The notes under the pieces were generated by a model. That model worked only from the letters and a program-made list of their open reading frames with translations, was not told the DNA's origin and did no database searches. From Patescibacteria group bacterium UBA3531 (GTDB lineage: Bacteria; Patescibacteriota; Minisyncoccia; Phycocordibacterales; UBA3531), in NCBI GenBank assembly GCA_002376885.1, contig DFOW01000001.1:15381-79380 (forward strand): a stretch of DNA of 64,000 nt, given 5' to 3'. This document shows, in pieces, positions 33,683 to 43,969 of the stretch. Within the stretch, counting starts at the first letter, position 1. Each line of letters opens with the position of its first letter. The translations under genes and the position numbers were made by a program.

Positions 33683-34363
33683 TTAGTCTTTGTTATATAA
33701 TTCTTCTGCTCTCCGATGGAGCCACTTGGAAGATTCTATCTCGTTTAAAGGAGTGTGTTCAGAAAAATAGGTGTGTTCTTTGTCCCACCGAATGGTTCTT
33801 TTAGACCATGGTAACCACCATGGGCCTTTAATTTTAATTGTCGTTAACAGTATTGGTGCTTTTGATTTGTAATGTATATGTTGTGGGCCTCGTTTAAATT
33901 CTCCAATTCCATCTTTTTTATGGACTCTCCCTTCGGCAAAAATCATTACTGCCTCACCCTTTTGTAGTCTGTCGACAGTTGATGCCGTTTTGTCTTCAAT
34001 AGTAAGAACCCCGTCTTTATCGCGAGGAGGAAGGATTAATACACCATTTGGCCAATAAATAAATGGATAGGTGATCACCCAATAAATTATTTTTAAAAAC
34101 CAGTGCCGAGGGCTTTGTGTCGCTAAAAAACGAATGGGTAGTATGCTCCAGTAATATTTAAAAGGAAGACTTTGAACAAACAACCAAGGGTCAATAACTG
34201 TCTTATGGTTCCCTACAATCAAAAGGGGTCGTGTTTTAATATCTTCGTATCGGGGCAAAACAACCTTTGTGTACAAAATAGTTTTTAAAACAGGATGAGC
34301 AACGAGCCATTCAAAAACCTGCCAGGAAATGACAATAAAACGTTTAATTTTTGATTCTTTCAT
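33683..34363 (-). CDS. 1-acyl-sn-glycerol-3-phosphate acyltransferase family (PlsC-like), AT-rich copy
   Basis: HX4D motif VGNHKTVIDP and FAEGRV (FPEGTR-like) motif. Confidence 0.7.
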   Translation of the reverse strand: MKESKIKRFIVISWQVFEWLVAHPVLKTILYTKVVLPRYEDIKTRPLLIVGNHKTVIDPWLFVQSLPFKYYWSILPIRFLATQSPRHWFLKIIYWVITYPFIYWPNGVLILPPRDKDGVLTIEDKTASTVDRLQKGEAVMIFAEGRVHKKDGIGEFKRGPQHIHYKSKAPILLTTIKIKGPWWLPWSKRTIRWDKEHTYFSEHTPLNEIESSKWLHRRAEELYNKD

Positions 34364-34431
34364 CTAGGGTAAGTATATAAAAGATGGATAAATGAAACGG
34401 ACGGAGGTTTGTGTAGCTGTGGAAACTACAC

Positions 34432-35091
34432 CTAACTCCGTCCGTGTGCCTCTGCCTCCCGATAGAGCGCAGAGAGCCGCGCATGAATGAACTCGACGCC
34501 CTCTTCTCCCGACATGCCCGAAGGCACGACAAGAGGAGCGATGTCCCAGTTCATCACGACTCGCCACCTGAAGGCGCTCACCTTCTGGCGATAGAGCGCA
34601 ACGAGCCAGATGGACGCACCGCTCTGCCGATGAACCGCCACGATCCCCTTCCGAAGCGGGCCAACCCCAGGACCCTTCCAGATCTTCCCTTCGGGATAGA
34701 TGAGGACGGACGTCTTCTGCTCGACGAGAGCTTCGACCGCGCCAGGGATTGCATGCTGCTTGGGGATGATCATGTTCCTCCGGTAGAACCACCGGTAGAA
34801 CTGACGGAACGGCGGCCACCAGAAGAGCTCCTTCCACGTGAACCTCTCCTTGGCGACGAACCGAATCGGCGCGATGGACTTGAAGCTTGCAAGGACAAGC
34901 GTCAGGACCGCGAAGGGGTGGTCGAGAGTCGACCGGTGGGTGGACCCGATGATCCGAGGCTCGCTCCCAAGAGCCGGGCCCGGATCGTTCAAGACCGTCA
35001 CCTTGTGGAAGGGAGCCAGAAGCCGGGGAAGCCACCAGTGTTCCTTCACCTGGAACCTGGCCGTCTCGCTAAGCTGTGTCTTGATCGACAT
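34432..35091 (-). CDS. PlsC-like acyltransferase, GC-rich paralog
   Basis: HX4D THRSTLDHP, PEG motif IYPEGKIWKG. SD AAGGAGG. Extended -10 (TGGTATAGT) upstream. GC-rich codon usage. Confidence 0.65.
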   Translation of the reverse strand: MSIKTQLSETARFQVKEHWWLPRLLAPFHKVTVLNDPGPALGSEPRIIGSTHRSTLDHPFAVLTLVLASFKSIAPIRFVAKERFTWKELFWWPPFRQFYRWFYRRNMIIPKQHAIPGAVEALVEQKTSVLIYPEGKIWKGPGVGPLRKGIVAVHRQSGASIWLVALYRQKVSAFRWRVVMNWDIAPLVVPSGMSGEEGVEFIHARLSALYREAEAHGRS

Positions 35092-35157
35092 GCCAGATTC
35101 CTCCTTAGGGTTTGGATGAACTTACTGACAAGCACTATACCACATATTTATAAAAAA

Positions 35158-35212
35158 GGAAAGGCCCTGCGGGTAATCACATTGATGTACACCCACAGGG
35201 CCCTTTTTGGCA
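35158..35212. terminator. bidirectional hairpin terminator between MMPL stop and PlsC2 promoter
   Basis: GGCCCTG-26 nt loop-CAGGGCC, flanked by AAAAAAGG and CTTTTTGG. Confidence 0.5.
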
Positions 35213-35228
35213 GTTGCCTGCCCTTCTC

Positions 35229-37559
35229 CTACGCCGCCTCGCCGTAGACCGGCCGGATCCGCGACCGCATCTCCTGGATCCTGCGTTCGAGGTCTCGCCT
35301 GAAGAACGTCTCCGGCGCAACCCGAACGATCGACGGAACGATCACGAGCGTTGCGACGAGACTCGCCACCATCGCGAGCGCGAGGAAGAACCCCAACACC
35401 CGAATGGGAACGAACGCCGAGAGCACGAGCGCGATGAACGCCAGGTTCGAACAGCAATCGAAGACGATCGGCATGCCGACGTCCTTGATGGCCACCCGAA
35501 GCGAGTTGTTCACGTTGCCAAAACTTCTCACCAGAAGACCCGTGCGGGTCACCAGGTGGATGTAGAAGTCGATAGCGGTCGCACCCACGATCAGCGTGAT
35601 AGCGAAGTTCGCAATGTCGATCGTGATGCCGAAGGCACCCATGAGGGCATAGACCAGCCCGTTGGCAAACGTCACGGGGACGAGGGCCAAGAAGGCGAGC
35701 CGCATGCTCCCCAAGAACCACCAGCACACGAGGACGAGAAGGATGGTCAGGAGCCCGTTGCTCCGTGCCCACGACTCGCCCAAGACATCGATCATCGCCG
35801 CCCATTCGAGGAACTCGCCGGTGATCCACAGGGAACCACCAAGGTCGTGTTCCTCCCGATACTCCCGGAGGGAGTCGCGGATGGCGTTGATCCGGTCGCT
35901 CGAGAACGCGTAGATGAACGGGTTCAAGACGAGGTACTCCTCGCCGTCATCCCGAAACTCGGACAGGACGTCCGGGTTGTCGAAGAGCGCGAACTGAGCG
36001 ATCGCATTCTCGTCGTTCGGGATCCGCTCGTCTGCCAGGTCCCCGTCGCGGAGCTCGCGGTTCATGCGAGCCACGCGCTCGTGGAGACCCGTACAGAAGG
36101 TGACGTCGGCGTGAGCCGACGCGTACCCGCAGACCTCGCGTGCCGTCTTGAGACATTCGGGGTCGTTCGTGCTCGTCTCGCACTTCAGCATGACCTGCAC
36201 GAACATCGTACCCCCGAAGTACTTCTCGAGGATGTCGAAGCCGTCGCGAGCCTTCTCCCCCTTCGGGATGAAGTGCGGCGGGTTCGAGCTCACGTTGACC
36301 TCTCTGATGAAGGGGGCCGCAATGATTACGGTCACCGCAACACCAGCGAGGACTCGTCTGCGTGAGTTGCTGAAGAGCGACATCTGGTGCGCCTTCTGCA
36401 AGAACCGCGCAAGCCGACTCCTGACGCGTTTCGACCGAATGGTCTCCGGCGTCGTGATGAGAGACGGAATGAACCAGACCGCTGCGGGAATGACCAGGAG
36501 GCTCGTAGCCGCACCGGTCAGGATCCCCACGATGGCGAACCAGCCGAAGTCGTGATGCGCCTGGACCGGGACACCCACCACCAGGGAAACGAATCCCAAG
36601 GTGCTGGTGAATGCCGCGGCCCGAACGGGACGGCTGACCAGCTCGAACGGGCTCTTGATGGCCTGCTCGAGGCCTTCGTAGTTCCTGTACGACCGCAGCA
36701 TGCACTCGAACACGTGGTACGCGTGCGATGACACGATTGCGAACAGGAGCACCGGAAGGCTTGAAGTCAGCACGTTCTGGAGGACACCGAAGTGCCCCAC
36801 CACACCGAGCGCCCCGACGATCGAGGTCGGGATCACGACGAAGACAGTGAAGACGGCTGCACGCCACCCAAGCACCGTCGACATGGTGATCCACAAGAAC
36901 ACGAGCGCCACTGCACCGAGCATCGCGAACTCTCGATTCGCGAGGATCTCGAACCAGCGGTTCTGGTAGTGGTTGGCGTACGGACCCGCACGGAAGGTGG
37001 CACCCTCCGTAAACGAATCTGCGAGACGCTCGAGTTCGTCGAAGACCTCGTTCTGCCCCTTCTTTCCGTCGAGACGGAAGACCATGAGGCTTGCGTAGCT
37101 GTCGGTCGAGACGATGCGCCCGTAGAGGAGCGGATCGCTTTCGATCTTTGCCCGAAGCGCACGCTCCTCTTCGCGCGTGGCGGGGACCTCTCGAATGAGA
37201 TCACCCACGCGCACCTCGCCCTCGCCCACGTTCTCGATGTAGTCGTAGCCCGTAAGCGAATGGACCACGGCTCCCGGCGCCAGGATCGAGGAGGTCTCGA
37301 CCTCGGCGTGGAGTGCCATGATCTTCTGGATGCAGCTGGCCGAGTAGGAACCCATGGGGCCCTTGCACTCGAGTCCGATGACCGCGTAGTCGTAGTCGAC
37401 GAAGACGCGATCGAACGCTGCGTTCTCGATGGCCTGGGGATGATCCGACTCGAGGTGACCCTCGAGAACCGGCGTCATCTCCGGACTGATCCCCAGAAGG
37501 GATACGGCCCAAAAGACCACGAGAGCGGTCAGAATGAAACCTGCCGTCTTTTTGCTCAC
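35229..37559 (-). CDS. RND-superfamily MMPL-type exporter (two 6-TM bundles)
   Basis: 776 aa. Duplicated 6-TM MMPL/SSD-like modules with large periplasmic loops. GTG start with SD AAAGGAG. GC-rich. Confidence 0.7.
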   Translation of the reverse strand: MSKKTAGFILTALVVFWAVSLLGISPEMTPVLEGHLESDHPQAIENAAFDRVFVDYDYAVIGLECKGPMGSYSASCIQKIMALHAEVETSSILAPGAVVHSLTGYDYIENVGEGEVRVGDLIREVPATREEERALRAKIESDPLLYGRIVSTDSYASLMVFRLDGKKGQNEVFDELERLADSFTEGATFRAGPYANHYQNRWFEILANREFAMLGAVALVFLWITMSTVLGWRAAVFTVFVVIPTSIVGALGVVGHFGVLQNVLTSSLPVLLFAIVSSHAYHVFECMLRSYRNYEGLEQAIKSPFELVSRPVRAAAFTSTLGFVSLVVGVPVQAHHDFGWFAIVGILTGAATSLLVIPAAVWFIPSLITTPETIRSKRVRSRLARFLQKAHQMSLFSNSRRRVLAGVAVTVIIAAPFIREVNVSSNPPHFIPKGEKARDGFDILEKYFGGTMFVQVMLKCETSTNDPECLKTAREVCGYASAHADVTFCTGLHERVARMNRELRDGDLADERIPNDENAIAQFALFDNPDVLSEFRDDGEEYLVLNPFIYAFSSDRINAIRDSLREYREEHDLGGSLWITGEFLEWAAMIDVLGESWARSNGLLTILLVLVCWWFLGSMRLAFLALVPVTFANGLVYALMGAFGITIDIANFAITLIVGATAIDFYIHLVTRTGLLVRSFGNVNNSLRVAIKDVGMPIVFDCCSNLAFIALVLSAFVPIRVLGFFLALAMVASLVATLVIVPSIVRVAPETFFRRDLERRIQEMRSRIRPVYGEAA

Positions 37560-37675
37560 CGTTTGCTCCTTTGGCGGACTTTCAAAGAACGCCTAAAAAG
37601 GTATGAATCTAGGTTAAAAGTGCCATAAATATATAAAAAAGTCAATAGTTATCGTGCCCCTGTGGATAGAGAAAG

Positions 37676-37712
37676 AGAAAAGGCGGCACGCGCGCGTGCC
37701 GCCTTCCTTGTC
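37676..37712 (-). terminator. rho-independent terminator after the LolA-like gene
   Basis: Minus sense: GGCGGCACGCG-CG-CGTGCCGCC followed by UUUUCUCUUUCUC. Confidence 0.6.
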
Positions 37713-37715
37713 CCC

Positions 37716-38540
37716 CTACTTCTTCGGGGGCTTCCTTCCCTGCTGGAGTGCTTGTTGGGTGCAGACAGGCACCCTGATCGTGGGGTCAATGACCCGCTCC
37801 TTCCACGTCACCTCGGTGGTACGCTCGGGAGTCTTTGGATCCCAGGCCACAAGCTTTGTGGGGAGTGCTCGCCCACCCACAGCCATGATGTTCTTGCGCC
37901 CAATGTCGATCATTCGCACCGGCACAAGCTCCGTGCCTTGCATCTTCTCTTGCGTGACACGAAGAAGAGCGCCGTCGCTCTTCGCAATCATCATCGTGGT
38001 CTGGTCGTACCCGCTCGCAAACCGCGGGCGGAGCACAAAGACGTACACGGGTTCATCGTCGAGCATGCTCTCCTCCATCCGAAGGACAGAGAAGTGCTCA
38101 CCTCGCCTGAACTCCATGTCGCCCTGCGAGAGCTCCGTTCCGAAGAACGCGTCACCCCGACTTGCGCCGCTGATGCGTCTCCGGTTCCGAATGGACGGGA
38201 GATACATCCAGTAGTCGTTCGATCCTTCGTCGATCGCGCGCTCCATTACGAGCATGGTGGTGTTGCGTACCGTTGTCGGGGCAAAGAACTGCCCAAACAA
38301 GCAGTACTCGTTGTCACGCTCTACCGTCCACACACCAAGCTCGCCCTTGAGTCGCCGCTTACCTCGCTTGGTATCGACGTTCTCGAGCGTTACTCGAGCG
38401 TAGTTGGGAGCGAAGTTCTGACGAAGAGCACGTTCCAGGATCTGTTCCGGGTTCACCGGAATGGCGTCTTCGATCGCTCGGGCGGTGCTCTCGCCACCAA
38501 GGAGAGAGCCTACCAGAAACAAAATGATAGCAAGCCGCAT
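37716..38540 (-). CDS. LolA-like periplasmic lipoprotein-sorting fold protein (partner of MMPL exporter)
   Basis: Signal peptide MRLAIILFLVGSLLGGESTA. 274 aa. The LolA/DUF1329-like assignment rests on size, the signal peptide and recurrent genomic pairing with MMPL exporters. Low sequence certainty. Confidence 0.4.
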   Translation of the reverse strand: MRLAIILFLVGSLLGGESTARAIEDAIPVNPEQILERALRQNFAPNYARVTLENVDTKRGKRRLKGELGVWTVERDNEYCLFGQFFAPTTVRNTTMLVMERAIDEGSNDYWMYLPSIRNRRRISGASRGDAFFGTELSQGDMEFRRGEHFSVLRMEESMLDDEPVYVFVLRPRFASGYDQTTMMIAKSDGALLRVTQEKMQGTELVPVRMIDIGRKNIMAVGGRALPTKLVAWDPKTPERTTEVTWKERVIDPTIRVPVCTQQALQQGRKPPKK

Positions 38541-38659
38541 GGCTCACCTCCTTGGAGTTTCGAAGATCCATGCGCGAAATGCGCATATCCAGTATTAAAA
38601 TAACACGTAAATTTTATTTGTCAATTAAACTGCCCTCCTTTAGGCCTTTTAAAGAATGC

Positions 38660-39454
38660 TTAAAGTTTTATATTCTTTTTATCTGTGACAAGAGAGAAGG
38701 TCTCATCATATCTACCTGCTGAAACAAAAAGTGGGTAGAAACTTATACTTGAAAAAATAACTGATTTTCCATTTTTACCGAGCGGTGTGTTTTTTTTAAT
38801 TTTTTGAAACTCTTTAAATTTATACTGATGAAATGGTTTGGGTGTTTTTAAGACGTCTTTTACTATATAAAGCTCTTTGTTGCGATGTCGTTTTCTCTGA
38901 TTTTTTAACATTTCTAGATTGCCAAGGATTTCCTCTATATCTCTTGCTACTATTTTATATCTCCTAGTTGATTTATCTGGTCCATATTCTAGAGAAACAC
39001 CGCATTTTGATGCACCTATTAAAGACCCCTTACCAAATTTATTTTTTCTAATTAGGGCTACTTTTGATATTGCAGAACAAGAAAGAAGTCTTTTTTTATT
39101 TTTATTAAAATCTGTAGTTATAAGAAGTCTATCTAGTTTTGAACTTGTACCATGAATATCTAAAACATAATCACATTTAGATATAATTTTTCGGATATGA
39201 TATGCGAGTTGTTGTTCCTGATTCCCACTTTTTTTACCAGGAAAACTTCTATTGAGATCTTGATGGATGTGTCGTGTCTTTGACTTCACTCCTTCTGGGT
39301 GAGCAATTATAAAAGTTATTGAGCCCTTTTTAAGGTCAATATTTTTTCTTAAGTATTTTATAGCCTCAATACCAATTGGTTCATCACCGTGGACGGCACC
39401 GACAATGGCAATTGATGGCCCTTTGATTTTACTTGTAGTTTTATACAGTTTCAT
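38660..39454 (-). CDS. succinylglutamate desuccinylase/aspartoacylase (AstE/AspA) family zinc deacylase
   Basis: SIAIVGAVHGDEPIG (the GxHGNE zinc motif of the AstE_AspA family). 264 aa. AT-rich, unlike the GC-rich neighbours. Confidence 0.65.
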   Translation of the reverse strand: MKLYKTTSKIKGPSIAIVGAVHGDEPIGIEAIKYLRKNIDLKKGSITFIIAHPEGVKSKTRHIHQDLNRSFPGKKSGNQEQQLAYHIRKIISKCDYVLDIHGTSSKLDRLLITTDFNKNKKRLLSCSAISKVALIRKNKFGKGSLIGASKCGVSLEYGPDKSTRRYKIVARDIEEILGNLEMLKNQRKRHRNKELYIVKDVLKTPKPFHQYKFKEFQKIKKNTPLGKNGKSVIFSSISFYPLFVSAGRYDETFSLVTDKKNIKL

Positions 39455-39518
39455 TATCTAAAAAAAATTTGGGGAGGGGCGGTGGTGTCATCATACGACG
39501 ACACCACCGCACATGCCC

Positions 39519-40277
39519 CTAGAGGTACTTCGCACACAGATCTTTGCATGTGAAGGCCCACGTAGCCACTTCGGCGGGACACCCGCTTGCACCGAAGACT
39601 CGAAACTCGATGGTCCCGTGCCCAGTGATTCGGATGTAGTGCCAGCAGCTTCGCAGATCTTCCGACCATCCGTCGGCGCGTGCCTTCTCGTGAACTTCTT
39701 CCCATCCCTTGAACTTGGGAGGTCGGAAGTTAGGGGCGACAACCTGGTAGAGCCTGTGACGCTCTCCGTTCGAGTGGTCCCCGACATTTCGAAGCTCGTC
39801 GACATGATCCACTACCCCATTGTAGACACGCAGAGCAGATTCATGATCGGGCATACCCACATGGATGTGGGTTCCCGTTACACGACATGCCGCATCGAGA
39901 ACTTCTCTGGGCATGTCTTTGGTGATCTCCGCGTACCTGCCAGTCGGGTCGGGGTACACCGAGAGACACATACCAGGAGGGGCTACCTCCAAGAATTGCA
40001 CCGAGAGCCCTAGGAACGAACATGCTCGGTTGAGCGCACGATCATTCCTCATGAGAGTACCGAGCACGTCTTTGGGAAGAACAGGCCCGATACGATCTTC
40101 AATCTGACATGCCGACAGCTCGAAACCGAATTCCTCACACTCTCCAAGAGAGGCAAGAACTTCGTGAGCTCTCGGAACGATCTCTCCCTTGTCATCGGTA
40201 ACGAAACGTTCCCGTTCGATACCGAGAAACAAGGACCTCTCTCTGTCGAAAGAGAAGCGATCCAAGAATTCTTTCAC
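39519..40277 (-). CDS. GCS2/YbdK-like carboxylate-amine ligase, C-terminally short (252 aa)
   Basis: LFLGIERERF (the GCS2 FTLGIELE metal-binding motif) and HIHVGM (the HVHVG motif) at YbdK-like spacing. GTG start 8 nt after GAAGGAGG. Preceded by a T-box leader. Confidence 0.45.
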   Translation of the reverse strand: MKEFLDRFSFDRERSLFLGIERERFVTDDKGEIVPRAHEVLASLGECEEFGFELSACQIEDRIGPVLPKDVLGTLMRNDRALNRACSFLGLSVQFLEVAPPGMCLSVYPDPTGRYAEITKDMPREVLDAACRVTGTHIHVGMPDHESALRVYNGVVDHVDELRNVGDHSNGERHRLYQVVAPNFRPPKFKGWEEVHEKARADGWSEDLRSCWHYIRITGHGTIEFRVFGASGCPAEVATWAFTCKDLCAKYL

Positions 40278-40299
40278 GAGAGTATCCTCCTTCTAAAGA

Positions 40300-40575
40300 A
40301 CTATTCGGGAACAAAAAATCCCGTCCTCACGACACAACCATCTGTATTGTGTCAAAAGGACGAGAGTTTTCCCGCGGTACCACCTTTTTTATCCCATTAA
40401 TGAAATGGGATCACTTAACTGACTCATAAAGATATCAGTTTTCCTATGATTACGGAGGAAGCCGAGCTACCACTATCGCAGTAGCCATCCTGCCTACGGA
40501 GGCGATACAAGCCCAACCCCGAATCCTTGTTCGGGACCTGCATCAAGGATTTTATTTCTTAAATATACTTCTATT
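40300..40575 (-). promoter_or_regulatory. T-box riboswitch leader (tRNA-sensing transcription attenuator)
   Basis: Minus-strand RNA carries the T-box sequence AAAAAAGGUGGUACCGCGG (consensus AGGGUGGNACCGCG, N=U). Antiterminator: AAGG/CCUU helix with a UGGUACC bulge and a CGGGA-AAAC-UCUCG helix. A competing 17-bp terminator hairpin CUCGUCCUUUUGACACA...UGUGUCGUGAGGACGGG plus AUUUUUUGUU follows. There is a Stem-III-like hairpin GAUCCCAUU-UCAUU-AAUGGGAU and a distal Stem-I hairpin GGCUACUGCGAUAGUGGUAGCUC. Confidence 0.75.
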
Positions 40576-40579
40576 GAAA

Positions 40580-40609
40580 GTATAAACACCAACAGTTTAA
40601 CTGTCAATA
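40580..40609 (-). promoter_or_regulatory. sigma-70-like promoter TTGACA-N18-TATACT driving the T-box leader, overlapped by the 13-bp palindrome ACAGTTTAACTGT
   Basis: Minus sense: CTGTATTGACAGTTAAACTGTTGGTGTTTATACTTTC. The palindrome spans the -35 and spacer region. Confidence 0.5.
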
Positions 40610-40620
40610 CAGAAAAGCAG

Positions 40621-40652
40621 GGGGCGCAGACCTTGACGCCTGCGCCCCCACT
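40621..40652 (-). terminator. rho-independent terminator of the trpS2/CM-MTase operon
   Basis: Minus sense: GGGGGCGCAG-GCGUCAAGGU-CUGCGCCCCC followed by UGCUUUUCUGU. Confidence 0.65.
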
Positions 40653-40654
40653 TT

Positions 40655-41776
40655 CTAGACACGAGTCGCTACCACGATCGTGTATGCACCATGCTCATTA
40701 CCTTCGTTGGAAAGACCTCGGTCAATCTTCTCGATCTCTTCACCGAGAAGCCCCTCCACCAGAAGGTTGCCTGGAAGCACGGACGACACTGTCGGATAGG
40801 TGTACATTTCGTCGATGACGAAATGTTGGTCGCTCACCATACTCTCGACGTCCGCAAAGGTGTACGGCCGTGCGAACACGGAGAACACCTCAGGTCCCGT
40901 CTCGGTATCCAGGTGGACATCGAGGCATTCCTCGTCGAGGTTGATCTGGGCTGCGAGACCCAGGGGCCACGGAAGGAATTGCTTGTAGACGAGAGCATCC
41001 AGGTTATAGAACGAGGCGAACAGCTTTCCACCCGGGGAGAGGACGTCGTGAAGGTTCGCAAGAAGCTTGCGGATCTCCCTGATGTCACTCCCTGTGCCCA
41101 TGGAAAGCGCTGCAAACGAGACAGAAGTCTGCGGGAACGAAAGGTTTCCTTCGTCCAGGTCATGGACGAAGAACTCGGCATTTCCGATGGACTTCTTCTT
41201 GGCCTCTCTGATCATGTGAGGACTGATGTCATAGCCCACCACACGATCGAACCTTGCCGCAAGGCGAGCGGCCTGAATCCCTGTAGCACAGCCAAGATCA
41301 AGGGCGCGCTCACGCTCGTCCTTGCTCATGTTCTCGACGATTCGATCGAGTACCTCTCTTTCGAACCTGAGATACGAGTCCGTGCTGAAGGTACCCCCCA
41401 GGAACTTCTCCTCGTACCATGGGGCGACACGCTCGGTTAGGTCGAGAAGCGCTTGCTTACGATCCCTCGGAGTCTTCTCCAGGGAATGGTCTCCCTGGAG
41501 AAGTCGAAGCTGTTCGTGACACGACTGAAGGATGGAGAAGTACATCAGCGCCCCAGCAAAATGGGAACGTACTCCGTACTTCTTTGCCCACTCCTGGGCT
41601 GCCTTCATCACACGAGCATCCTCGATTTCCTCTCGGATGATCGGCTGACCCTGGGAACGCTTGTAACGTTCCACCTGTGCCGCAAGCTCCATCCGACGAG
41701 CAAAGATCGCAAGGATCGTCTCGTCGACTGCCCCAAGCCTCTTTGCGAGGATCTCGAGGTTGGGTAGTTCTGTCAT
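40655..41776 (-). CDS. chorismate mutase (AroQ/CM_2) domain fused to class I SAM-dependent methyltransferase
   Basis: The N-terminal 90 aa, LEILAKRLGAVDETILAIFARRMELAAQVERYKRSQGQPIIREEIEDARVM, align to AroQ catalytic positions (Arg11, Arg28, Lys39, Glu52, Gln88 equivalents). Central MTase motif I LDLGCATGIQAARLAARFDRVVGYDIS and motif II/III GGKLFASF. Start is 13 nt after the trpS2 stop. Confidence 0.6.
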   Translation of the reverse strand: MTELPNLEILAKRLGAVDETILAIFARRMELAAQVERYKRSQGQPIIREEIEDARVMKAAQEWAKKYGVRSHFAGALMYFSILQSCHEQLRLLQGDHSLEKTPRDRKQALLDLTERVAPWYEEKFLGGTFSTDSYLRFEREVLDRIVENMSKDERERALDLGCATGIQAARLAARFDRVVGYDISPHMIREAKKKSIGNAEFFVHDLDEGNLSFPQTSVSFAALSMGTGSDIREIRKLLANLHDVLSPGGKLFASFYNLDALVYKQFLPWPLGLAAQINLDEECLDVHLDTETGPEVFSVFARPYTFADVESMVSDQHFVIDEMYTYPTVSSVLPGNLLVEGLLGEEIEKIDRGLSNEGNEHGAYTIVVATRV

Positions 41777-41789
41777 CTCTTGGATCCTT

Positions 41790-42788
41790 CTAGTACTGCC
41801 TGATTCCCATCAGGTCGCGTACTTGTTCGGTCGTTTCCTTGATCATGGCTCGGGCGGTCTTTCCACCTTCTACCAGAACTTCTTCGACGTAATCTCGCTT
41901 CTTGGCGAGTTCACGTCGTCTCTCCTGGAACGGCTCGATGACCGACGCAAGGCTTTCGATGAGGAGAGTCTTGCATTCACCGCAACCGATCGAGGCAGAT
42001 TGACACGCATGTGCAATCTCTCGGTTGCCTTTTTCGCCAGGAGTGATGAGCTCGTGAACCGGATACACGGACTTGCATCCGTGATACGGGTCACCGGGAT
42101 CGGTTCGTGTCCTTCGTGCAGGGTCCGTGACTCCGCGCTTCTTGTACAAGTTACCGATTTCGGCGATAGGAAGATTGATGTCGACAGCGTTACTGGCGTC
42201 TGACTTTCCCATCTTCCCACCGTCGAGACCAGGCACCTTCACCATTTCGGAGAGCATTCGCGGTTCTGCGAAAACATCTCCGAAGCGGCTGTTGAAACGA
42301 CGAGCAATGGAGCGCGCCATCTCAACGTTCGGGACCTGGTCCTCGCCACACGGCACAAGGGTCGCCTGCGGACCAAGAATGTCCGCAGCCATCAGCACGG
42401 GGTAGGAAACCAAACCGAGACTCACACGGTCCGGATTCCTCTTCACCAGATCCTTGAAGGTCGGAACCCTCTGCAGATCTCCAAGCGGTTGAAACATGGA
42501 GAGATACAGGAAGAGTTCCACCGTCTCGGGAACGCTCGACTGAGCGTAGATGACGGACTGCTCCGGGTCGAGACCCGCAGCGAGGTAGTCCGTAACGATC
42601 TCGAGGAGGTTCTTTCGAAGCTCTTCGGGGTCGTCGAGCGTCGTCAAGGTGTGCAGATCTGCAACGAAGTAGAGGCAGCGATTTCCTTCCGCCTGATGCT
42701 CCACAAAGTTCCTCACTGCACCCAGGAAGTTTCCGAAATGGAGTCTTCCTGTAGCCCTGATTCCAGAAAGCACGGTCTCTTTATTCAC
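41790..42788 (-). CDS. trpS: tryptophanyl-tRNA synthetase, GC-rich second copy (possible Fe-S type)
   Basis: LSGIRATGRLHFGNFLGAV (HIGH region), SYPVLMAADIL, KMGKS. C-terminal Cys cluster HGC...HAC...CGEC. GTG start after GGAGGAG. Confidence 0.8.
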   Translation of the reverse strand: MNKETVLSGIRATGRLHFGNFLGAVRNFVEHQAEGNRCLYFVADLHTLTTLDDPEELRKNLLEIVTDYLAAGLDPEQSVIYAQSSVPETVELFLYLSMFQPLGDLQRVPTFKDLVKRNPDRVSLGLVSYPVLMAADILGPQATLVPCGEDQVPNVEMARSIARRFNSRFGDVFAEPRMLSEMVKVPGLDGGKMGKSDASNAVDINLPIAEIGNLYKKRGVTDPARRTRTDPGDPYHGCKSVYPVHELITPGEKGNREIAHACQSASIGCGECKTLLIESLASVIEPFQERRRELAKKRDYVEEVLVEGGKTARAMIKETTEQVRDLMGIRQY

Positions 42789-42895
42789 GTCTACTCCTCC
42801 GAAGGTTTCTAACTCTAGGTGACAAGCACGATGCTTGGCAAAGACCTTGTTCTGATCAGAAGTCTAACAATTAAAACTTTGTTGTCAATGTTTAA

Positions 42896-43969
42896 CTACA
42901 CCCCCTCTTCCTTTAACTCTTCAATGAGTTTTTTTGCTTTTTTAGAAAGCTTGCCTGGAGTTTTTACAATGAGTTTTATAAGTAGGTCTCCTCGTTTATT
43001 GTCACTTACCGGTACTCCTTTGCCACGCAAACGAAGCACCTCGCCACTTGAAGCACCTGCAGGGATCGTTACTTTTAGGTTTCCTTCAAGTGTCTCTACG
43101 CTGTAGTCTGCACCAAGCACGGCATCGGTAAGTTTTACATTTAAATCCATAAGAAGATCTGATGCTTGCCGTTTAAAGGCTTCGTGTGCTTCTACATGCA
43201 CTCGCAAATACAGATCTCCTGTTACCCCATGTGGCACAGCCTCTCCTTTCCCGGAAAGCCTAATCATTTCGCCATGTTGGATACCTGCTGGGATAGTGAT
43301 ATTAATTTCTTCATCACTTTTTACTACGCCAGAGCCGTTACAGTCTTTACACTTTTCTTTAGGAATTGAACCCTTTCCAAAACAATCAGAACACTCTTTA
43401 ACTTGTGTAAAGGTCCCTAACAGAGATTTTCTTGTTTCGTGGAGTTTACCCTTACCGTTACAGGTATTGCAGGTGATTGTCTCCTTTTCATTCTTTGCCC
43501 CCGTACCATTGCAGGTTTTACACTGAGAGTTTTTAGTGAGTTTTATGATGCGAGTCGTTCCAAAAATGCTTTCCTTAAAAGGCAGTTGAATATCTACTTG
43601 GATGTCGCTCCCTCGGCGGACATTTGCACCACGGCCACCAAACGGACCACCCCCGGTAAAGATGTTTTCAAAAATATCACCCAAGTCGACATTAAACCCA
43701 TCTGCTCCTTGGAAACCAGAGAAATCAAAACCACCAAAACCTTGTCCACCGCCACCAGAAAATGCCTGGCCGTAGGTATCGTATTCGGCTCGTTTTTTAT
43801 CGTTTGAAAGGACTGTGTAGGCCTCGTTTACTTCTTTGAATTTTGCTTCGTCTCCCCCTTTGTCGGGATGGTATTTATGCGCAAGACGTCTAAAGGCTTT
43901 TTTGATTTCGTCTTTAGAAGCCTTTTTATCTACCCCCAATACTTGATAGTAGTCTTTATTGGCTGACAT
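42896..43969 (-). CDS. dnaJ: chaperone DnaJ
   Basis: J-domain with HPD (YYQVLGV...KYHPDK). G/F-rich linker. Four CxxCxGxG zinc-finger repeats. Confidence 0.9.

Follow-up and report, generated by a model that had tools for sequence, protein, structure and literature searches.

Probable transcription-attenuating tRNA-Trp T-box with a compact Stem I ahead of a carboxylate-amine ligase gene in Patescibacteria

In T-box leaders of the long and intermediate Stem I types, specifiers have been described in side bulges (PMC7583486). According to the same source, a Stem I without the elbow-binding platform is typical of translational T-boxes, mostly those of Actinobacteria, and the platform is essential in transcriptional ones. 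In TBDB the use of the short-Stem-I model has been confined to Actinobacteria and truncated class I hits. A literature search, with many subscription papers and TBDB itself outside its coverage, returned no paper linking T-boxes to Patescibacteria (candidate phyla radiation, CPR) or to a carboxylate-amine ligase. Here we describe a leader found in Patescibacteria group bacterium UBA3531, in a stretch of 64,000 nucleotides (assembly GCA_002376885.1, contig DFOW01000001.1, positions 15,381 to 79,380 of the forward strand) which is called the window below and numbered from its first letter. The leader lies on the minus strand in front of a carboxylate-amine ligase gene, and in all probability it is a transcription-attenuating tRNA-Trp T-box of a compact-Stem-I class in Patescibacteria. 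The coordinates of its elements and of the neighbouring genes are collected in Table 1.

The leader, its expression platform and its compact Stem I

A preliminary description made from the sequence alone had recognised a T-box here, and this is borne out by a full-length match to the Rfam model RF00230 on the minus strand (40555-40353, model positions 1-219, 58.1 bits, E 3.9e-12 in a relaxed search of 551 nt), in the alignment of which the model passes over the interior of Stem I. The score is below the gathering score of 93, and at gathering or curated thresholds Rfam has no match anywhere in the window. None of 20 relative loci carrying the leader reaches the gathering score in an Rfam search, and in a relaxed search at E <= 1e-3 six of ten relatives were matched at 39-55 bits and four were missed. 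Since the relatives fall below the gathering score or go unmatched, the compact leader class escapes standard Rfam annotation.

Between the promoter and the Shine-Dalgarno (SD) sequence and GTG of the ligase the leader measures about 295 nt, and its fold is stronger than that of shuffled sequence (z = -5.6). It had been called GC-rich; its GC content is 43%. The TTGACA/TATACT promoter proposed for it stands with 11 of 12 matches, with a spacer of 17 nt and not 18. The T-box core GGUGGUACCGCG is found at 40384-40373 (minus strand), and the 7-nt bulge UGGUACC (40382-40376) sits in an antiterminator just as proposed. The 3' strand of the antiterminator, CUCGUCCUU (40364-40356), doubles as the 5' arm of the terminator; because this strand is common to both, the two structures are mutually exclusive, as had been claimed, with folding energies of -5.3 kcal/mol for the antiterminator versus -35.3 kcal/mol for the terminator. 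A terminator with a U-tract follows the T-box in 43 of 47 relatives. The SD sequence and the GTG start codon are where they had been placed, and the SD lies outside the terminator/antiterminator switch. The discriminator domain is canonical, reading AAGUG-[AUCCCAU..AUGGGAU]-AA at 40416-40389 and then the T-box bulge; purine flanks of the form RRRxG ... AA around Stem III are a motif defined in PMC7583486.

The architecture upstream of this domain was established by covariation. Relatives of the leader were found by nhmmer with the profile of an alignment of 44 related leaders (A2), in which helices P1, P2 and P3 with a 5-nt bulge, an optional P4, Stem II, IIA and the IIB pseudoknot were tested. 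In this architecture 91.3% of the cells are paired versus 40-54% when the pairing partners are displaced by one to three columns, compensatory changes occur at 30 of 38 pairs, and the covariation score is 0.52 versus 0.11-0.15, none of 500 shuffles being as good. The preliminary description had taken a GAUAGUG element for the distal loop of Stem I, and AUC-A in CCGUAAUCAUAGG, above a UGAUG/AUAGG base likened to a K-turn, for an isoleucine specifier. The Rfam alignment assigns these segments to Stem II and to Stem IIA with the F-box (the latter including CGGCUUCCUCCGUAA), and the true Stem I therefore lies at 40550-40487. GAUAGUG is thus the loop of Stem II, the presumed specifier falls, by alignment and covariation, in the F-box and the IIA/B pseudoknot, and the UGAUG/AUAGG K-turn does not exist.

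Across the family the distal hairpin P3 comprises 15-36 nt and the entire Stem I 47-94 nt. An elbow-binding platform (AG bulge plus distal loop, interdigitated T-loops) was found in no member, and there is no conserved distal loop or bulge. At the usual K-turn site, the window copy and most ligase-linked copies have a three-way junction of P1, P2 and P4 without tandem G.A; the K-turn consensus is present in loci L016 and L027 and in many metagenome members. UGGG in the specifier bulge is invariant in all 44 leaders of A2, the preceding base being U, C or A, and the metagenome leaders also show G in that place. Stem II is paired in 97.7% of cells with compensatory changes at 6 of 7 pairs, the loop positions U, G, C / G, U being invariant, and all five pairs of the IIB pseudoknot UUCCU/AGGAA covary.

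A further hairpin links the IIA/B pseudoknot to Stem III in nearly all leaders. Its outer helix covaries by eye (CUGAU/GUCAG, CCGAU/GUCGG, UCAAU/GUUGA, in the window and at the same place in L004-L077); on the inside, a variable insert is framed by the conserved nucleotides G-U-C ... (U)G-A. This hairpin might compensate for the absent elbow platform or K-turn.

Table 1. Elements of the leader and neighbouring genes in the window
Feature	Position	Strand	Description and basis
TrpRS (tryptophanyl-tRNA synthetase) gene	42788-41790	-	NCBIfam trpS, 255.6 bits
Chorismate-mutase-like (CM)/S-adenosylmethionine (SAM) methyltransferase fusion gene	41776-40655	-	Domain search; abuts the TrpRS gene
Intrinsic terminator of the upstream TrpRS/CM-methyltransferase unit	40620-40649	-	12-bp stem with 10 GC pairs, then UGCUUUUCUG
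Sigma-70-type promoter	40579-40607	-	TTGACA 40607-40602, 17-nt spacer, TATACT 40584-40579; 11/12 matches
Compact Stem I	40487-40550	-	A2 alignment and covariation
P1	40550-40546 / 40491-40487	-	4/5 pairs with compensatory changes
P2	40544-40537 / 40511-40504	-	7/8 pairs with compensatory changes
P3, short distal hairpin	40536-40517	-	5/7 pairs with compensatory changes
Specifier bulge U-UGG-G	40512-40516	-	Codon UGG 40515-40513, then conserved purine G40512
P4, side hairpin	40503-40492	-	3/3 pairs with compensatory changes
Stem II	40465-40486	-	GGCUACUGCGAUAGUGGUAGCU; 7 bp, conserved UGCR..AGUG loop; Rfam alignment
Stem IIA (CGG/CCG), F-box-like CCGUAA (40455-40450) and IIB pseudoknot	40441-40464	-	Rfam alignment
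Linker hairpin between IIA/B pseudoknot and Stem III	40418-40439	-	ACUGAU..GAGUCAGU; in nearly all leaders
Stem III	40391-40411	-	5' purine string AAGUG (RRRxG) from 40416, then AA; Rfam alignment and minimum-free-energy fold
Antiterminator	40356-40386	-	AAGG[UGGUACC]GCGGG...CUCGUCCUU; A1 AAGG/CCUU, A2 GCGGG/CUCGU
Intrinsic terminator	40313-40365	-	19-bp interrupted stem 40365-40319 and U-tract 40318-40313 (UUUUUU)
SD sequence AGAAGGAGG	40294-40286	-	Ahead of the ligase start
Ligase open reading frame (ORF), 252 aa	GTG 40277, stop 39519	-	Compact carboxylate-amine ligase of the glutamine synthetase (GS)/glutamate-cysteine ligase (GCL) fold
Strong GC-rich hairpin and U-run 3' of the ligase gene	39458-39510	-	Read from sequence
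AstE/AspA-type zinc N-acyl-amino-acid deacylase gene	38660-39454	-	Pfam, 79 bits; 31% GC

Tryptophan specificity and the genes behind the leader

Five lines of evidence assign the T-box to tRNA-Trp. Its specifier, UGG, can pair with the anticodon CCA of that tRNA, and the variable base N of the UGGN bulge, read as C in 31 leaders and as U in 14, follows the pattern expected for a tRNA with discriminator base G73. Relatives were drawn from a scan of one genome per species, which gave 80 ligase loci, essentially all from CPR. Within about 3 kb of the ligase these loci contain 32 tRNA genes, 21 of them for tRNA-Trp and placed either divergently upstream or downstream of the ligase, in the latter case immediately or after one gene. 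All 21 carry G73, including those at loci with N = U (L010, L021, L035, L038), so that the A73 tRNA formerly deduced from the variable U is not upheld. A distance of at most 3 kb separates the ligase from TrpRS in 35 of the 80 loci, in four arrangements, and from the CM-methyltransferase fusion in 14, where the fusion is usually beside TrpRS. In the window itself a tRNA search found no tRNA gene.

A check independent of any protein was provided by a metagenome scan with the RNA-only signature TCCTCCGTAAYCATRGGA, which gave more than 120 matches, of which 80 loci were returned. The leader profile is fitted by 73 of these 80 loci, all 73 showing the N-UGG-G bulge. The first genes after these leaders include TrpRS (391 bits), TrpB (559 bits) and TrpE (529 bits), and the leaders also precede TrpD-like enzymes and homologues of the tryptophan dehydrogenase ScyB. 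The ligase is the next gene in 8 of 62 evaluable metagenome leaders, and trp genes follow the others. A leader dedicated to the ligase, as the protein-first picture would have it, was ruled out by this RNA-first scan.

Several of these loci deserve mention in their own right. A stand-alone TrpB2, a TrpB-like pyridoxal-phosphate enzyme (735 bits), stands directly behind a compact UGG T-box in L086 and L131, which suggests indole salvage. In L129 and L162 (also L153/L154) dehydrogenases of the Glu/Leu/Phe/Val family follow a UGG T-box; their best NCBIfam match is tryptophan dehydrogenase ScyB, at 301 bits against a cutoff of 600. Such ScyB-like genes suggest tryptophan synthesis from indole-3-pyruvate under T-box control. 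In L136, tyrosyl-tRNA synthetase was considered as a target and rejected, being a separate gene past a small Cys-rich ORF and a terminator. This ORF of about 75 aa (CAICE..CRECE..CCC) lies on the reverse strand some 100 nt past the T-box terminator and has an SD sequence and a terminator of its own.

The ligase, its operon partners and the origin of the unit

The gene under control had been described as a truncated ligase of the GCS2 superfamily rather than an aminoacyl-tRNA synthetase (aaRS) or known biosynthesis gene. The superfamily and the unusual target are confirmed: a profile of Stem I to IIA/B detects the leader upstream of the ligase, in the same orientation, at 49 of the 80 ligase loci, and in 44 a T-box core is present 112-234 nt before the ligase. 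In L029, L032, L036, L087 and L098 an extra ORF of about 107-177 aa stands between the T-box terminator and the ligase, and because of it the leader is 600-780 nt upstream. The truncation is not confirmed. Pfam GCS2 (PF04107) is matched with 25.6 bits against a gathering score of 21, over model positions 1-145 of 291, and the NCBIfam cutoffs are missed (TIGR02050 with 40.7 versus 176.4, GCL equivalogs with 15-35 versus 332-427). Hundreds of proteins at some 50% identity make up the family. Their lengths are 245-300 aa throughout, they fall into 164 clusters at 50% identity (E <= 1e-30), and every named member comes from Patescibacteria. The AlphaFold2 model of the window protein (mean predicted local distance difference test 97.1, predicted template modelling score 0.93) was matched by Foldseek to YbdK (PDB 1R8G/1TT4) with TM 0.76-0.79, E 1e-10 and 14-16% identity, further matches being plant glutamate-cysteine ligase, glutamine synthetases and gamma-glutamylmethylamide synthetase. 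The motifs GxExE (GVERE), HxHxG (THxHxG) and GT(I/V)E(F/V)R (GTIEFR) align to YbdK. Within the family they do not vary, and neither do residues E21, E23, E53, E60, H137, H139, R209, R216 and E224. On this evidence the protein is complete, a compact member of the GS-fold carboxylate-amine ligases and not a truncated one. Five cysteines (C57, C131, C211, C244 and C248) are invariant or almost so in 98 family members, with a CxxxC in the C-terminal helix; they could form a metal site or a redox feature.

The most common downstream partner of the ligase, present in 46 of 76 loci, is the AstE/AspA-type deacylase, whose nearest PDB relatives are aspartoacylase, N-acetyl-diaminobutyrate (DABA) deacetylase and succinylglutamate desuccinylase. 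In the remaining loci a GGACT/AIG2, GATase_4 or C26 enzyme takes its place, and M20 amidohydrolases recur upstream. The conserved operon logic predicted from these arrangements combines an ATP-dependent enzyme that forms amides with one that cleaves them, the pair being induced by uncharged tRNA-Trp. In the UBA3531 window the ligase and the AstE-like gene may be separately transcribed, unlike the tight spacing seen in most relatives. Promoter-like hexamers are present at the start of the AstE-like gene, 3' of the hairpin at 39458-39510. On the other side, the terminator at 40620-40649 insulates the T-box unit from the TrpRS/CM-methyltransferase unit. The fusion gene of the latter joins a chorismate-mutase-type-II domain to a class I SAM methyltransferase and recalls CmoA, the prephenate-dependent carboxy-SAM synthase.

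It had been supposed that the T-box arrived with a GC-rich island from one of the phyla known for T-boxes. The nearest named relatives of the AT-rich window DnaK are all Patescibacteria, and the leader-ligase unit is found in AT-rich and GC-rich Patescibacteria alike; for these reasons the T-box is native to Patescibacteria and not imported from Firmicutes or Chloroflexi. An assembly artefact does not account for the GC-rich island, because an identical locus recurs in at least 8 contigs from several marine assemblies; the window itself corresponds to a metagenome-assembled genome of Tara Oceans. The composition of the region (34000-43000) is a mosaic: the TrpRS, CM-methyltransferase and ligase genes have 55-56% GC, the leader 43% and the AstE-like gene 31% (20% at third codon positions, GC3), against a window average of about 40%. 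The TrpRS of the window is 65-69% identical to that of GC-rich relatives, and it is plausible that the local copy was replaced by DNA of a patescibacterium richer in GC. Higher values still are found in an MMPL gene (62% GC, GC3 83%) and a LolA-like gene (59% GC), neither of which recurs at any of the 80 related loci. Plus-strand ORFs of 383, 278 and 313 aa overlap these two genes at 35214-37628 and are called as genes in L001-L003; they resemble the spurious antisense ORFs that high-GC DNA commonly contains.

Proposed mechanism, rival explanations and known systems

The analysis shows the anatomy of the leader, its covariation, its assignment to Trp and its regulon. We infer tRNA binding and read-through, and the proposed course of events would be as follows. 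Transcription would begin at the TTGACA/TATACT promoter. UGG in the 5-nt bulge of the short Stem I would then pair with the anticodon CCA of tRNA-Trp, aided by Stem II and the IIA/B pseudoknot, with no elbow platform and with a three-way junction in place of the K-turn. The 3' NCCA of an uncharged tRNA would pair with the T-box UGGU (through a U.G73 wobble here, C-G73 in most relatives), stabilising the weak antiterminator and allowing read-through into the ligase gene. With charged tRNA, the 19-bp terminator would form and transcription would end.

What the operon does is far less certain than how it is switched. The same leader class controls genes of tryptophan synthesis and salvage, and a role in tryptophan supply or homeostasis is therefore considered for the ligase operon, which might act by ATP-dependent formation and hydrolysis of a gamma-glutamyl or N-acyl amide conjugate; this assignment is tentative. 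A broader proposal, which we regard as rather doubtful, is that ligase and deacylase constitute a CPR-specific, tRNA-Trp-controlled route of tryptophan acquisition or homeostasis, headed by a transcriptional T-box without an elbow platform and mostly without a K-turn. CPR organisms are thought to rely on scavenged amino acids.

Several points weigh against this interpretation of leader and operon. The RF00230 score of 58.1 bits stays below the gathering score of 93, the leader is not present at 31 of the 80 ligase loci, and in the window a strong terminator stands between ligase and deacylase. The tRNA-Trp of the host lies outside the window, so that the U.G73 pairing is taken from relatives. 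The induction of a possibly amino-acid-consuming ligase in tryptophan starvation would be counter-intuitive, which is why the functional part of the interpretation is the weak one. Finally, the elbow platform is called essential in transcriptional T-boxes (PMC7583486), and fast tRNA recruitment by the compact form is unexplained.

Other explanations of the leader concern its specificity or its very function. The isoleucine assignment, with an AUC-A specifier above a K-turn and a tRNA with A73, can point to AUC followed by A at 40450-40447 and to the U of the bulge in the window copy. It is scarcely credible, as CCGUAAUCAUAGG aligns to the F-box and Stem IIA/B of RF00230, where the UUCCU..AGGAA pseudoknot covaries in 5 of 5 pairs; AUC is not conserved (relatives show AAYCAUGGG or AACAGAGG), most relatives carry C in the bulge, a base incompatible with A73, and isoleucyl-tRNA synthetase or ilv genes were not found in the regulon. 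The conserved YUGGG might also be read in another frame, as Leu (UUG/CUG), since 43 of 44 leaders have U or C ahead of UGG, or as Gly, GGG being likewise invariant. The Leu frame is contradicted by AUGGG in L016 and GUGGG in many metagenome leaders, and both frames by a regulon and neighbourhood that are Trp-specific. Moreover, bacterial tRNA-Leu usually has A73 and tRNA-Gly U73, neither of which pairs with the majority C, and such a shift of frame deserves very little credence. That the leader has decayed, or resembles a T-box by chance, and regulates nothing would agree with a score of 58 bits where the gathering score is 93 and with a Stem I interior skipped by the model; nonetheless, all conserved positions of the leader class are intact in the window, the architecture is common to hundreds of relatives with compensatory changes, and the tested relatives all score low for the same structural reason, which reduces the chance of decay almost to nothing.

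Two explanations accept a T-box and differ in what it does. The switch could be mainly translational, through sequestration of the SD sequence as in actinobacterial short-Stem-I T-boxes. A platform-less short Stem I is otherwise described for translational T-boxes (PMC7583486), and the SD can be covered by a weak UUCUUU/GGAGGA hairpin; against this, a 19-bp GC-rich hairpin with U6 overlaps the antiterminator, in the window as in 43 of 47 relatives, and a translational switch is very unlikely. Alternatively, a genuine Trp T-box could govern an operon that acts on the charging machinery, for instance by modifying tRNA-Trp or TrpRS, or that detoxifies a natural TrpRS inhibitor or a tryptophan analogue, which the cell would perceive through uncharged tRNA-Trp. 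The ligase does cluster with TrpRS (35 of 80 loci), tRNA-Trp (21) and the CM-methyltransferase fusion (14), clustering of a kind more typical of translation-linked than of metabolic genes, and production of tryptophan by a ligase is not obvious. T-box-controlled auxiliary aaRS genes conferring resistance to inhibitors are also known. Set against these arguments are the trpB, trpB2, trpE and Trp-dehydrogenase-like genes controlled by the same leader class and the nature of the partners, AstE/AspA-like, M20, GGACT and C26 enzymes being small-molecule amide hydrolases; on balance a role in charging or detoxification is improbable. A transcription-attenuating tRNA-Trp T-box with a compact Stem I is the explanation that we prefer.

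With this leader, T-box regulation is placed firmly in Patescibacteria, which fits the affinity of the group to Terrabacteria. The combination of a terminator with a platform-less Stem I, often without a K-turn, constitutes a natural test of which modules are needed for co-transcriptional capture of tRNA; if true, a T-box class without the platform and mostly without the K-turn departs from features that current reviews regard as indispensable to transcriptional or to short-Stem-I T-boxes. Tryptophan limitation offers a physiological handle on a widespread CPR ligase family (about 160 clusters at 50% identity) and its deacylase partner, and the association with TrpRS, tRNA-Trp and the CM-like methyltransferase makes the function of the ligase directly testable.

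As to known systems, the ligase resembles YbdK/GCS2 (PDB 1R8G, 1TT4) in a fold match over the whole protein and in the shared GxExE, HxHxG and GT(I/V)E(F/V)R motifs. It differs from YbdK in its length (about 250 versus about 370 aa), its five conserved cysteines, its restriction to Patescibacteria, its operon with a deacylase and its control by a Trp T-box. The pairing of a GS-fold ligase with an enzyme cleaving N-acyl or gamma-glutamyl amides is reminiscent of PuuA/PuuD and of GCL with gamma-glutamyl cyclotransferase, and neighbourhoods of an amidoligase with GAT-II and AIG2 were reportedly predicted by Iyer and co-workers in 2009; a literature search on amidoligases and AIG2 yielded nothing of relevance. 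To our knowledge, none of these PuuA/PuuD-, GCL/cyclotransferase- or amidoligase-type systems is tRNA-regulated or linked to tryptophan.

The leader shares with the transcriptional T-boxes of Firmicutes (RF00230) the UGGN bulge, the antiterminator/terminator pair, the Stem III purines, Stem II and the IIA/B element with the F-box, as well as a specifier in the 3' side bulge of Stem I that is followed by a purine; like the Trp-specific Firmicutes T-boxes of trpS and trp operons, its relatives have trpS, trpB and trpE among their targets. It is unlike them in a Stem I of only 47-94 nt with a distal hairpin of 15-36 nt, in having no AG bulge/distal-loop platform, in the three-way junction that stands for the K-turn in most ligase-linked copies, in G as the purine after the codon, in scores of 39-58 bits for the tested copies against a gathering score of 93, and in its host phylum, Patescibacteria. 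With the actinobacterial ileS T-boxes of intermediate or ultrashort Stem I (Sherwood et al. 2015; M. tuberculosis and N. farcinica structures, as presented in PMC7583486) it has in common a Stem I without an elbow platform, a specifier in a side bulge under a short hairpin and a dependence on the module of Stem II and IIA/B. Those T-boxes are translational, possess an SD sequestrator and read Ile, whereas the CPR class possesses a terminator with a U-tract and would read Trp.

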